In this document: in pieces, positions 909 to 62,159 of the stretch | Numbering within the stretch: the stretch's first letter is position 1 | Layout: each line of letters begins with the position of its first letter | Origin: Eledone cirrhosa | Taxonomy: Eukaryota | Assembly: GCA_964016885.1 (NCBI GenBank) | Contig: OZ024746.1 | Span: forward strand, 27,280,001 to 27,344,000 | Reading direction: 5' to 3' | Length of the DNA: 64,000 nucleotides | Program-made: the position numbers and the translations under genes | Notes under the pieces: generated by a model | The model's input: only the letters and a program-made list of their open reading frames with translations | The model's database searches: none | Told to the model about the DNA's origin: nothing

Positions 909-2347
909 TATCTATCTATTCTCTCTCTCTTTCTTTCTCTCTTTCTCTTTCTCTCTCACTCTCTCTCTGTCTGACTGTCTGTCTGTCTTTCTCTCTCTCT
1001 CTGTATATATATATATATTCATGTGTGTTGTGTGTGTGTATGTGTGCGTGCGTGTGTGTATGTATGTGTGCGCGCGCGTGTGTGTGTGTATGTGTGTGCG
1101 TGCGTGTGTGTGTGTATGTGTGTGTATGTGTGCGTGTGCGTGTGTGTGCGGGCATACACATACATACGCGACTCTAGACCGGAGAGATAGAGGCGGCGAA
1201 AAACCAATTTCAGAAGAAATACCGGATATATCGAGCGATTGTACGATCGACAAATCGCCTGGATTGTATGGTCTACTCTACGAACCGGCGGTGGTGGAGG
1301 TGGTAAAAGTGATGGTGATTATGACGACGGCGACTACGATGATGATGATGATGATGATGATGATGATGATGATGGTGGTGATTAGGATGGTGATGATGAT
1401 AGTGATGGTAGAAATAGTGAAAGTGGTCGGTAGGAGGTTGATGGTAGGGTTTTCTGATGGTAATAATTGCAGGAATCGATAGCTAAATTAGAGAATATTA
1501 ATGTTAATTAAGAAACGAGGCCGTAGTTGTGATGTCAACAATTTCAAAGAGATATTAGAGAAAAGAGGAACTAAAGCCACAATAGTGCAATTTTAAATAC
1601 ATTATTGATTTCTAGCTTAAAGAAAACCTAACAGCTGACGACCTAGAGAAAAATATCCAGGGACACGTTCTGTAGGAAAATCGAACGGTAAGTTTCAATG
1701 CTGATTAGTTTAATGTAGTAAGTACGTCAATAAATCTTAATTAATATTTGAGATAGTCACTTCTAAGTTTCTTTAACAGAATTGCTCATTCAACTGATAT
1801 TACTTTCTCCTCGCCACTAATTAATTAAAATGTCTTCGTTTATTACATTAAATGTGTAAATACTTACATTGCCGGACAGAAGATAGGCGATTTCATAGTG
1901 CTTGTTTTCCATAACATATCAAGGTGTCAGTAGATCTCGTGAGATCAAGGAGCTACACATGAGTACTGCTGGTTTGGGTAAAGTTTATATTCTTATTTCT
2001 ATGGAAGATTGGTGAATGTTCAACCACGCAAGTCCCCCTTCCATTAATATAGTCCAAGGAAAATACAAAGATATACGTTGATAATCAGTTATGGTGCAGG
2101 TGAACTGGGAAAGGTGGATATAGCTAGGTAACAATGATGCTACAGGGGAAGTGGGAACGGTGGATATAGATAAGTAACAATGTAGGTGATCTGGGAAAGG
2201 AAATGGTAAAATGAGGTACCGCAAGCATCATGGCTAACGTTTCTACAATATAAATGTTTATAACTGATTCAGAGCACTCGACAGTTTTCCGGAGTATAAT
2301 ATTCAATGATATTAAATAAATGGAAACTATATTTATAAAACCATATT

Positions 2348-2407
2348 TATTCTATTATATATATTTCAAGGTACCAAAACTTTGGTACGCTTTCATCAGA
2401 TAAAATA
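2348..2407 (-). ncRNA. Type I hammerhead ribozyme motif (family A)
   Basis: Minus strand: tattttat-CTGATGA-aagcgtaccaaagttttggtacctt-GAAA-tatata-TA-atagaata; stems I and II pair, stem III palindromic. Confidence 0.75.
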
Positions 2408-2470
2408 CAAAGTTTGTTTTATTAAGGTATCTTTTCTTGGTTATGTCAAAATTTACAAAACAAACTTTGC

Positions 2471-2529
2471 ATTTTATCTGATGAAAGCGTACCAAAGTTT
2501 TGGTACCCTTGAAATATATATAATGGAAT
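2471..2529 (+). ncRNA. Type I hammerhead ribozyme motif (family A)
   Basis: attttat-CTGATGA(2478)-aagcgtaccaaagttttggtaccctt-GAAA(2511)-tatata-TA-atggaat; stem I 7 bp including two G:U. Confidence 0.75.
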
Positions 2530-2643
2530 AAATATGGTTTTATAAATAAAGTTTCCATTTATTTAATATTGTATATATATATATATATATATATATATAT
2601 ATATATATATATATATATATATATATATATATATATATATATA

Positions 2644-3012
2644 TTAGGGTAAATATTGATGCAATTTAATTCAAGCACTCAACGTACTTTTTCCACATAG
2701 GAGTGACGGAGTAAATATCGAATAAGGAAAAGCGAAGTAGTTTCAGATGTTCAAGTCCTTTAATAATAATGCTGTGATATATATTTCAGTGACGACACTG
2801 GCCACACTGTTCTGTGTGCGCGTGTCGTGTCATCATCAGACAGCTTGTTACATAATAAGGTTATGTTTCCGAGGCAATCCAAATTGGATCGACATGGGAA
2901 CAGATGAATTGCGTGTTTTGGGGTTTTTCATCCGCTCCCTTGTGAGTACCAATTCACCCCCACCGGCCTGCGCAAGCCTGAACATCTGAAACTACTTCGC
3001 TTTTCCTTATTC
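2644..3012 (-). mobile_element. Fold-back hammerhead element, family C
   Basis: ~34-bp inverted arms 2720-2753 / 2979-3012; tail 2644-2719 abuts (TA)n; internal hammerhead. Confidence 0.65.
2771..2844 (-). ncRNA. Type I hammerhead ribozyme motif (family C)
   Basis: Minus strand: gctgt-CTGATGA-tgacacgacac...gtgtcgtcact-GAAA-tatata-TC-acagc; perfect 5-bp stem I; base of stem II imperfect. Confidence 0.7.
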
Positions 3013-3279
3013 TCTCTCTCTCTCTCTCTCTCTCTCTCTCTCTCTCTCTCTCTCTCTCTCTCTCTCTCTCTCTCTCTCTCTCTCTCTCCTCTCTCTCTCT
3101 CTCTCTCTCTCTCTCTCTCTATATATATATATATAGAGAGAGAGAGAGAAAGAGAGAGAGAGAGAGAGAAATGAAATAAATTGATATAGTTATATATATA
3201 TATATATATATATATATATATATATATATATATATATATATATATAGATAGATAGATACATACATACATACATAGCTTA

Positions 3280-59180: not shown

Positions 59181-59221
59181 TATATATATATATATATATA
59201 TATATATATATATATATATAT

Positions 59222-59524
59222 ATTTATATGTCTGTACGGAATTCCTTCCTTGCTCACATTCCAACCAGGTTTGATGGTCTTTATTCTCTCTCGTTCACGA
59301 TTTTACCGAACTTATATTCATGGAAATTTGGGACTTGACTCCTTCTTCCTCACTTTTCGTTGCTTCACCATCTTTGTTTGTTTACACTCTCGTGTCCCCT
59401 TTATTTACGTGTCCCAACAACTTTTTTTAGCCATTGCTCGCACCAACCGGAGGTATATGGTCTTTAAAGCGATGAAATACCAATGATGGTTGGAAGATCA
59501 CTGATGAAGGACTAACTTTATTCA
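59222..59524 (+). mobile_element. (TA)n-embedded repeat with partial hammerhead core
   Basis: Homologous to 55005-55372; CTGATGA at 59501, then truncated by (TA)n. Confidence 0.5.
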
Positions 59525-60218
59525 TATATATATATATATATATATATATATATATATATATATATATATATATATATATATATGTGTGTGTGTGTGTGTG
59601 TGTGTGTGTGTGTTTAAAAGAACAAAATATTTATTTAAAACATTCAAACATTTATTGATTCAGAACTCAATACTGGTGGATAGAGTGTAAATTTTATTTT
59701 CTAAGTTGAAAAGTGGCTTCGAAGTTTCAGCTTGGTCTATTCGTCTGTAGGCACACACAGTCTCTCTCTCTCACACACACACACATACGCGCACACACAC
59801 ACACATATAGAGAGAAAGAAAGAAAGATAGGGGCAAAGAGGAAGAGAAAGGGGAATTTGCATAAATTTCCCTTTCTCTTGTTCTTTTTTACCTACTCCAT
59901 TGTTCTCTGCTTCGCTCTTCCTCTCTCACTTCTCTCCTTTTATATATATATATATATATATATATATATATATATATATATATATATATATATATATATA
60001 TATATATATATATATATATATATTTATATATATATATATATAGTGTGTGTGAGAGAGAGGTAGAGGTAGATAGATAGATAGATTAATAGATAGATAGAGA
60101 GATAGAGAGATAGATAGATAGAGAGAGATAGATAGATAGATAGGGAGATAGATAGACAGAGAGATAGATAGGTATATATATATATATATATATATATATA
60201 TATATAGGAACGAGTAGG

Positions 60219-60314
60219 ACCCCGACGGCTGAGTTCAAGCCGTTTCGACGGCTAATTCTGGACTAAATGAAAATTTTTATCCTAGTATTTGAATAGCCGA
60301 GCTTCTCAAGGGGT
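60219..60314 (-). ncRNA. Type I hammerhead motif, U3:A8 core (family B)
   Basis: Minus strand: acccc-TTGAGAA-gctcggctattc...gaattagccgtc-GAAAC-ggcttgaactcagcc-GTC-ggggt. Confidence 0.75.
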
Positions 60315-60455
60315 AATTCCATATATGGTAAAAGTGATTGTCACAAGGATTGGTCAAAAGTTTGTTGTTGAGACATAATAATTCTATCATGGCAATCTGT
60401 GGAGGGAAGGGTTAGCTAAACCTTTTACCATGAACCTTTTACCATATATGGAATT

Positions 60456-60551
60456 ACCCCTTGAGAAGCTCGGCTTTTCAAATACCAGGATAAAAATTTT
60501 CATTTAGTCCAGAATTAGCCGTCGAAACGGCTTGAGCTCAGCCGTCGGGGT
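60456..60551 (+). ncRNA. Type I hammerhead motif, U3:A8 core (family B)
   Basis: acccc-TTGAGAA(60461)-gctcggct...agccgtc-GAAAC(60524)-ggcttgagctcagcc-GTC(60544)-ggggt. Confidence 0.75.
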
Positions 60552-62159
60552 CCTACTCGTTCCTATTACCCACTCTACTACCCTAAGTATTGAGTACTTT
60601 GGTGCGTTATGGTCCACCTAGTTCCTTACCACATTTCCTCCGTTATATATATATATATATATATATATATATATATATATATATATATATATATATATAT
60701 ATAGAGAGAGAGAGAGATAGATAGATAGAGAGAGAGACAGATAAATAGACATCTTAGATAGATAGATAGATATATAGAGAGTGAGAGCAGCATAGAGAGA
60801 AACAATAGCGATTAGTAGAAGGAGTGAGAGATAGAAAGCGATAGAAATAAAATTACAGGAACCAAATGAAATATAAAGAGTAAAAACGTTAATATAAAAC
60901 GTAACAGTAGAATCATTAAATTGCATTTCTGAGAAGTTATTAGTTTTATTAGTTTATTATAGTACCCCCCGCCTCACTCCATTATATAAAGATATATAAA
61001 TACACTGAACAACAACTTGAGAGGATATCAATTACCAAAGAGCGTATAATGAAATTTTTCTGGTTGAAACGAATGATAGAATTTGTTATTATGAATAGTT
61101 TATAAAGTGTATTGAGAAAATATTTAATAAAAACAAAATATTTACGTAGTAAAACTAAATACACCACAGTGTAAAGGGTAGTGAGTACAATATTTAGAAA
61201 GCACTGGAAGTTTGTGTAAAGTTAGCGCTAATATAATCTTGATGTTACTAATTAAAATAGTTCTTTAAATAAAATTTTACAAAAAATATAATAAAATGAA
61301 ACATCACATTTCCTAATGCTAAAATAATAATAGAAGTAAAACGGAAATTTCATAAAACATTTTTAGAATATTGAGTTTAGAATGACAGAAAGATATACAA
61401 TTTTATGACAAATGACTCGTTGGGGGAATTTGCATGACAGCAAGCGTTAATTTAACAATACTACTGTGTTTTTAACATCTCTCCTTTTTACATTGTAGAC
61501 CTGGAGAAAGAGTCACCATGGTGTGTGTGAATGCTGATAGTGAGGCTTAGCATTTGGAATAACCACAAGGGCACTAGTGACAGGTTGTTTTTACTAAAGA
61601 AGTATGAAGTATGACGATGTATTCTTGAAATGAATAGTACGTTTTTGTTGTCGCTGAAAGACACAGGTTGGTATGTCTCCATCTAAGAATTGCTTCCCTA
61701 TCTCTCTACAGGGAATTAATGGAGGTTTGGTGTGATGTGTATAAATTCTTTGTGGAATCATAATATTTGCTATTCATGAAACATGATAGCTTAGTGATTA
61801 GAGGCTTGACAAGTCAATCCAGACATATTTGCTGCTAGAACTTCCTTCAAATATATCCTACAGACACATCTGATTGTTTTCTAAACTGACACTTTCGAAC
61901 ATATATCTTTTTCATGGAGTCATCAAGTGCCATATGCGTTATTTTAGCATAACATTTCGAAAGGTATTAAATCTATAACAACTGGACAATGTCCTTATAT
62001 AAACTGAGAGACAGGTGAGTAAAATGGATTGATTTATATGTAAGACGACATGCCAAACTGAATGCTGAAATTTCATTACAGAAACATCATTTTATTTGAT
62101 GAAAAGTACCGATGTACGAAATATTTGCCGCTCCATTCTCTTATATAGTTTGTGTGATA

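Follow-up and report, generated by a model that had tools for sequence, protein, structure and literature searches.

We analyzed a stretch of 64,000 nucleotides (nt) of the Eledone cirrhosa genome, hereafter the window, in which fold-back repeats border on (TA)n microsatellites and carry the motif TYGAGTRCY in their tails. We predict a bulged hairpin, RCTC-[variable stem-loop]-TN-GAGY-RCY, with this motif as its 3' strand, and the fold-backs are, judged by their sequences, 5'-truncated, inverted copies of Penelope-like elements (PLEs) of the Hydra clade. The leaders of these elements follow the order hammerhead, end 1, hairpin 1, tail, end 2, hairpin 2, ATG, with fixed offsets of the ends and wide conservation among Hydra-type elements. 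As the hairpin lies 5-10 nt downstream of both preferred ends, it is likely a binding site of the reverse transcriptase (RT)-endonuclease, at which reverse transcription would be started upstream.

TYGAGTRCY matches ten times in the window, where 2.78 ± 1.57 matches are expected from shuffling and none of 100 shuffles reaches ten; the motif had, however, been defined post hoc in the same window in which it was counted. The ten sites were listed with correct coordinates and strands by an earlier sequence-only reading, and the window holds no further matches. The spacing of approximately 30-75 nt to the end given there applies to eight sites, with distances of 30, 43, 45, 45, 60, 61, 63, and 75 nt to (TA)n, but not to 2273 and 14350, which have no TA end within 90 nt. 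A weak site suspected at about 63946 is indeed a hairpin copy, at 63945, but reads TTAGT where other copies of the family have TGAGT (L020). Since the sites at 2273, 41768, 56337, and 57399 form a single lineage group, the ten matches represent about six lineages. Positional enrichment extends to the whole genome (3.0 Gb): the motif followed by 25-55 nt and (AT)9 was found 35,301 times in forward orientation versus 514 times for a like-for-like reversed-pattern control, and 163,489 versus 3,141 times on the multiply counted side, all of these counts being dominated by high-copy families. A motif-independent survey for hammerheads yielded 79 matches in 21 clusters. The hairpin is present in the longer copies of five clusters and was not found in the other 16, some of which stop before the tail while others belong to other clades or are false matches. 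Thus, the motif is not general to hammerhead-bearing TA elements.

The motif is better described as one strand of a predicted hairpin that is present twice than as a linear 9-mer. Its GAGY pairs with an upstream RCTC to form the lower stem and is followed by RCY, while a variable stem-loop and a bulge of usually 2 nt (TT, TC, TA) lie in between. The flanks, formerly taken to be unrelated, hence contain the conserved pairing partner 13-54 nt upstream and, further upstream, a hammerhead core. Full Watson-Crick pairing of the lower stem is found at eight of the ten window sites, with one mismatch at 14350 and 56337. In an initial 400 kb sampled at even spacing, the hairpin accompanies 17 of 23 motif matches with a TA end versus 1 of 11 without. 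For a pairing test, we picked 92 distinct hairpins using nothing but the 3' strand and the closest CTC. Their closing pair is G-C in 67 cases and A-T in 12, and upper pairs 1-3 are formed in 80, 62, and 56 hairpins, above all 2,000 partner shuffles; pairing at position 4 did not exceed these shuffles. An additional predicted helix joins the sequences after hairpins 1 and 2 (-11.5 kcal/mol with the own partner versus -5.5 kcal/mol across families) and is family-specific, the own partner ranking in the top 10% for 34 of 43. An upstream helix partner for hairpin 1 was sought and not found (-7.8 versus -7.6 kcal/mol). The minimum free energy (MFE) fold of the family B leader gives both hairpins and the joining helix (z -1.3), and the family A leader folds with z -2.4.

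The coding parents identify the host elements. A search with the family B tail led to loci carrying RT and GIY-YIG pieces; a DNA search with the family A tail gave no matches. The parent of family B is a four-copy tandem with a 3531-bp unit and an open reading frame (ORF) of 716 aa with RT (YRDD) and GIY-YIG (YIGLT) motifs, which is intact, for instance, at L051:1960-4110. Its reading frame continues without interruption across the tail, spanning 784 codons from stop to stop. As the family B protein has 0 Pfam and 0 PDB matches, its domains were assigned from motifs and homologues. Coding parents or homologous ORF pieces were found for A, A1, A2, E, the 27.8-kb and 57.5-kb families, and others, and the RT plus GIY-YIG ORF of these elements was not found within the window. 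The endonuclease is C-terminal in motif-bearing parents, and the family B protein features RWR, DKT, the linker CNCPDRSIC, CNLC, and CKH but no CCHH, which matches the definition of Hydra (Craig et al. 2021, PMC8557442; this and all further publications cited by number were available to us in part, and statements about them refer to that part). The CxCX5C linker and the CxxC/CxH spacing of B recur in A2, F194, F204, F195, and A4, in a comparison that left A, A1, and E uncovered. Most host families have RWR or RWK, and 12 of 14 have DKT; among 77 metagenome loci, which were fetched by protein alignment only, 62 have DKT and 15 DKS, 50 RWK and 17 RWR, with 10 not covered. The 14 host families are 37-60% identical between lineages and up to 91% within one, and they occupy one side of a branch versus the 77 metagenome loci (100% in the Shimodaira-Hasegawa-like approximate likelihood ratio test) in a tree built by a quick method, with no outgroup and no named Hydra, Neptune, Nematis, or Poseidon references. 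The families had been called unrelated; their coding parents are homologous and form one branch, so that the motif was inherited and retained while the flanks diverged, rather than acquired convergently. Likewise, the guess of a Penelope-type element was correct in kind, but the clade is Hydra and not Neptune. Neptune and Nematis were rejected, as their CX2-5CxxC linker and CCHH endonuclease are absent from motif-bearing parents, and so were Naiad and Chlamys (N-terminal endonuclease, no canonical hammerhead), given the C-terminal endonuclease and the hammerhead cores of the parents.

Tandem copies (3531 bp), inverted arms to end 1, and tails to end 2 are PLE traits, 5'-truncated inverted copies were known earlier, and insertion into (TA)n is as described for the Hydra clade (PMC8557442). 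Type I hammerhead cores were detected in A, A1, A2, B, C, E, and G by pattern search and reading by eye. Of the 277 Rfam matches for the window, the 150 listed were all microRNA-like; none reached the gathering score, and there was no hammerhead among them. The family B hammerhead (60461-60528, 60242-60309), which is without an Rfam report, shows the U3-A8 core variant described for PLE hammerheads (PMC4209133) and a stem II loop of approximately 45 nt. The family E parent, whose ORF is approximately 52% identical to B, was not recovered with the canonical two-hairpin pattern (28 and 33 matches versus 17 and 13 in controls) but with a tail-continuation pattern. Family C (G000:C1:130.88 Mb, L185) has a 1322-bp tandem unit with a longest frame of 72 aa and a hammerhead-like core in the units read; it resembles a large non-LTR (long terminal repeat) retrozyme riding on Hydra elements. 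For family G, no ORF was found and no tandem seen. In C and G alike, the hammerhead is preserved together with the two hairpins and the joining helix, as expected of a cis signal for mobilization in trans.

The family B unit comprises, in this order, ORF, 3' untranslated region, hammerhead, end 1, hairpin 1, tail, end 2, hairpin 2, 62 nt, and ATG; in coding parents generally, hairpin 2 lies approximately 13-62 nt before the ATG. To locate the ends, we considered 1,417 (TA)n junctions with non-repetitive flank from the window and 800 kb of evenly spaced stretches. Fifteen parent leaders accounted for 113 of them (93 from the 800 kb, 20 from the window), while the others matched none; the references had been shortened, as a nested TA insertion in one of them had drawn 69 of 165 junctions. 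For 106 of the mapped junctions, a hairpin begins 2-14 nt downstream, and for 96 it does so at 5-10 nt, although only 81 of 506 parent TA dinucleotides (16%) lie within those windows. In 72 of the 113 cases, a TA follows the junction in the parent. Inverted arms end before hairpin 1 and tails before hairpin 2. The tail is the stretch of approximately 70-130 nt between end 1 and end 2 and always contains hairpin 1; consequently, each tail shows one motif, and hairpin 2 is unseen in truncated copies. The earlier proposal of a conserved cis signal tied to copy ends thus finds support, the inverted arm stopping 5-10 nt before the motif-containing hairpin. A second hairpin was found without being selected for in family B, which was found by protein, and in the 57.5-kb family. 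In the latter, hairpin 1 ends GAGC-CCT and the second hairpin was predicted beforehand. Its tail end plus RCTC matches 436 loci (control 0), GCTC lies 6 nt past end 2 in most of the matches listed, and most loci read run on through GCTC..TTGAGCACT, ATG, and a Hydra ORF.

The hairpin is not confined to the host. Among the metagenome loci, 57 have a readable leader, near-copies included, and 47 of these contain the hairpin, often twice. Controls of equal length gave 2 of 57 (reverse complements), 0.5 (shuffles), and 0.04 (a further control). The metagenome consensus is GCTC..TYGAGCACT, such that ACTC/GAGT represents the host-lineage form of hairpin 1, and the core is kept across proteins approximately 36% identical while the inner stems turn over. 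Six published Hydra consensi (PMC8557442, File S7) were read by eye: the hairpin is canonical in three, namely Hydra-2_Amil (coral), Hydra-1_Ajap (two copies), and Hydra-2_Ajap (sea cucumber), variant or partial in two, Hydra-1_Crog (copepod, GCCC/GGGC) and Hydra-1_Amil (partial), and not seen in one.

In the mechanism that we propose, the protein would nick a (TA)n target and bind the hairpin on the transcript. The nicked TA end would then pair with a UA 5-10 nt upstream of the hairpin, and copying would start there, so that the hairpin used would never be copied. A start at hairpin 2 would yield a copy with a tail that includes hairpin 1, i.e., the motif noticed at the outset, while a tailless inverted arm would end at the hairpin 1 site. 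End 2 would be held in a loop by the helix that joins the post-hairpin sequences. In vitro, the RT of a Poseidon PLE starts at two internal sites matching the tail ends, and its minimal template reaches +172, past the preferred start at +111-118 (PMC11167929).

Several observations weigh against a protein-bound RNA hairpin of this kind. Ten of the 57 metagenome leaders and Hydra-1_Obim lack it. In family E the second hairpin is degenerate (GCAC/GTGC, then CCC; no GAG core), and the copies end 5-9 nt before this degenerate structure. Single tails fold no better than shuffles (z +0.2 to -0.8). The helix gain is -5.85 kcal/mol in sense and -5.76 kcal/mol in antisense, and with counts of G-U versus A-C of 11:5 and 9:17 there is no strand asymmetry, which means that sense RNA is not favored over antisense RNA or single-stranded DNA. 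For 25 short hairpins with an 8-nt inner part, four of six pairs are invariant, including the lower stem, pair 6 is formed in just 12, the covariation score is reached by 15 of 500 shuffles, and RNAalifold gave no covariation term. Moreover, the sequences are related, such that hairpin and pairing counts are inflated and do not represent independent events, and a single change in the host lineage may account for the A-T closing pair. Finally, 13 of the 15 parents were found by the two-hairpin pattern; their second hairpins are not independent evidence, while the junction offsets are.

The missing sense-strand bias would suit another reading, in which the GIY-YIG endonuclease would recognize the hairpin in DNA form, be it cDNA, an antisense copy, or an extruded stem, and would cut 5-10 nt upstream during resolution of the integration intermediate, leaving the tail as a cleavage product. 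Recognition by the D. virilis endonuclease depends on the tail (cited in PMC11167929), the tail has been ascribed to endonuclease resolution (PMC8557442), antisense templates have been discussed (PMC3846280), and a non-Hydra element abuts a hairpin-bearing tail in three of eight loci, a sample biased by the GCTC pattern with which it was picked. We nevertheless regard this reading as unlikely. The 3' ends of tail-bearing copies are sharp, unlike their 5' boundaries, which spread from -25 to +11 with no pile-up at end 1 (47 listed of 287 copies), so that cutting of genomic DNA at end 1 is not favored. An inner part of 5-43 nt with pairing speaks against a double-stranded site, and the Poseidon protein yields both tail ends through RT initiation in vitro (PMC11167929).

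A smaller chance still is given to the hairpin directing cleavage or termination of the transcript just upstream, the two resulting RNA 3' ends then being copied by end-primed reverse transcription. The geometry fits equally, and read ends in Poseidon RNA-seq coincide with the start sites; yet on longer in vitro templates these starts occur internally, and RNA downstream of them is required (PMC11167929). The hairpin itself is without a known ribozyme core, and Rfam gave no match at gathering score across 14 leader loci. It is quite improbable that the motif serves the leader in translation, in splicing, or as a promoter, or that it is an ancestral sequence in slow decay, with copies ending at a nearby TA for other reasons. 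The proximity of hairpin 2 to the ATG, the single ancestor common to all coding host families, and the family B frame that is open through the tail are in line with this, but both hairpins persist in families C and G, for which no ORF was detected, metagenome copies have GAGC and hence no GT donor, the windows with 16% of parent TA dinucleotides hold 94% of ends, and the core is retained while proteins diverge and inner stems change. That the motif is a chance pattern, taken post hoc from a few high-copy repeats that amount to some six lineages, has next to no probability in view of the protein-selected metagenome set (47 of 57 versus 2 and 0.5) and the controls on genome-wide enrichment, pairing, junction offsets, and the second hairpin of the 57.5-kb family.

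With the Hydra clade as described by Craig et al. (PMC8557442), our elements share the C-terminal GIY-YIG domain, RW[K/R], DKT, the CxCX5C linker, CxxC and CxH around the endonuclease, the pseudo-LTR (pLTR) hammerhead, (TA)n targets, tandem and inverted copies, and the optional tail. The available part of that description mentions no hairpin or tail motif and gives 30-40 bp for PLE tails, which is shorter than the tails found here, and units generally under 3 kb, as opposed to 3.5 kb for B. PAc, a Poseidon element of Anolis (Frangieh et al. 2024, PMC11167929), has in common with them two internal starts bounding the tail, the need for RNA 3' of the start, a start in a stem-loop, and an upstream hammerhead; it differs in belonging to another clade, in having the sites inside the ORF, and in that no binding motif was defined in the part available. 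Type I pLTR hammerheads and ORF-less tandem derivatives are shared with PLE hammerheads and non-LTR retrozymes (PMC4209133, bioRxiv 10.64898/2026.07.22.740005, PMC7229834). A downstream hairpin goes unmentioned in the available parts of PMC4209133 and PMC7229834, and tail, hairpin, stem-loop, and initiation have 0 occurrences in that of bioRxiv 10.64898/2026.07.22.740005, whose retrozymes of 51-972 bp are exceeded by the 1322-bp unit of family C. No published description of the hairpin pair was found in a search without subscription journals, Repbase/Dfam entries, figures, or bioRxiv supplements. The elements are ordinary new members of a known clade; the cis element is the new part. In hepatitis B epsilon, the 3' untranslated stem-loops of LINEs (long interspersed nuclear elements) and R2, and the template boundary of telomerase RNA, an RT-bound stem-loop fixes where copying starts or stops. 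Unlike these, the present hairpin lies 3' of the start, is left uncopied, and is duplicated, and we claim no homology.

The hairpin-bearing features of the window are compiled in the table. Two of them, the hairpin of the 27.8-kb family and the variant at 57006, had been overlooked by the sequence-only reading. For the orphan tail, a second copy was absent among the loci examined and no parent was found. In the region 54500-60700, PLE remnants, at least ten in number, are stacked and separated by (TA)n, a pattern expected when insertion recurs in the same microsatellites.

Table. Hairpins of the window with associated elements, hammerhead cores, and parent loci.
Feature	Hairpin position (strand)	Hairpin characteristics	Element	Hammerhead core	Parent
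Hairpin 1, family B	60572..60598 (+)	ACTC/GAGT lower stem, 4-bp upper stem, TT bulge, ACT; motif 60590-60598 (+) is its 3' strand; recovered in parent-leader MFE fold	copy 60208..60643 (+), in (TA)n; inverted arm 60208-60324; end 1 ~60563; end 2 60643	60461-60528, sense, pLTR, U3-A8 variant	
Hairpin 1, second family B copy	15355..15381 (-)	45 nt before (TA)n			
Hairpin 1, family A	57385..57407 (+)		~57159-57467	57215-57257 (-), within inverted arm	L159
Hairpin 1, family A1	41768..41789 (-)		~41707-42015	41917-41959, within inverted arm	L168
Hairpin 1, A-group tail fragment	56337..56357 (-)	decayed, one lower-stem mismatch			
Hairpin 1, family A2	2273..2295 (-)		fold-back 2351-2527; tail cut short	2363-2399 (-), 2478-2515 (+)	L191
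Hairpin 1, family C (ORF-less)	2674..2712 (-)		~2644-3010	2783-2839 (-)	
Hairpin 1, family E	54681..54702 (-)		~54638-54833; palindrome 54708-54833	54745-54768 (-)	
Hairpin 1, family G	57654..57716 (-)	long inner loop	~57579-59178	59079-59121, within inverted arm	
Hairpin 1, orphan tail	14332..14358 (+)	one lower-stem mismatch			
Hairpin 1, 63.9-kb family	63931..63953 (+)	1-nt bulge, TTAGT	after palindrome 63843-63924		
Hairpin, 27.8-kb family	27839..27867 (+)	GGGT for GAGT; 60 nt before (TA)n		27727-27770, preceding hairpin	L188, L204
Variant hairpin	57006..57035 (+)	GCTC..TG-GGGC-GCT; 71 nt before (TA)n			

The 25.4-kb fold-back family (25351-25677) has two ends and a tail of approximately 55 nt with no GAGYRCY; its sister is linked to a CX4CxxC-type, non-Hydra GIY-YIG ORF (L333, L108) and has no constant GCTC after the tail. 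The hairpin that follows the tail of the non-Hydra family was not accepted as belonging to this family itself, as only eight loci, all different, were involved. A non-Hydra PLE end abuts the hairpin-bearing tails of three families, 5-11 nt before the hairpin (joins at L411:1500-1600, L412:1500-1620, and L418:1500-1580, a sample biased by the search pattern). A PLE-like family at 55204-55371 and 59405-59524 has CTGAYGA near its end and a variable short tail, in which the hairpin motif was not seen. The family at 55401-56206 is a 99% inverted repeat (327 nt) with two ends approximately 24 nt apart, and other copies have GAGCACC, perhaps a degenerate hairpin, in the short tail. A further family, at 13149-13975, occurs in high copy number (3,951 candidates); its tandem unit measures several hundred bp, and it shows RT-like sequence interrupted by many stops as well as a fold-back at the end. 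A TCTC/GAGA look-alike in it was set aside, since strand and clade of the family are unsettled.

Further repeats are found in the window. Two 1.6-kb RT fragments in tandem (19695-21308 and 21629-23242), which we take to be RTE-like, are 99.6% identical and have C-terminal zinc fingers. An element at 32565-37009, presumably L1/Tx1-like, contains open frames of 288 aa and 1071 aa, and a related 3' piece is located at 383-802. One repeat resembling a short interspersed nuclear element (SINE), presumably akin to the octopus OK/OR SINE group, occurs in many copies, some of them in tandem (9678-9773, 14463-14640, 15610-15828, 23904-24454, 27939-28144, 31656-32254, 39434-39601, 51459-51630, and 62454-62608). 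A 65-bp minisatellite with 23.8 copies (97%) spans 42985-44533.

The origin of PLE tails and the choice of template and start site by telomerase-related RTs are open questions, and the sole in vitro study placed start sites, not the RNA signal (PMC11167929). The hairpin provides a short, clade-wide candidate signal with an exact geometric prediction, and intact young ORFs exist. It is also a fast annotation handle for Hydra elements and their non-autonomous derivatives, of which there are at least tens of thousands in this genome. Quite possibly, although we would put the chance slightly below even, it is the first defined recognition element of a PLE RT, a portable hairpin of approximately 20-30 nt that is conserved in Hydra elements of several animal phyla, that sets the RT start 5-10 nt upstream of itself, and whose duplication explains the tail. 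If this holds, any RNA with the hairpin would be copied into (TA)n by a Hydra protein, and the helix-closed, looped-out start site would correspond, in minimal form, to the template domain of telomerase RNA.

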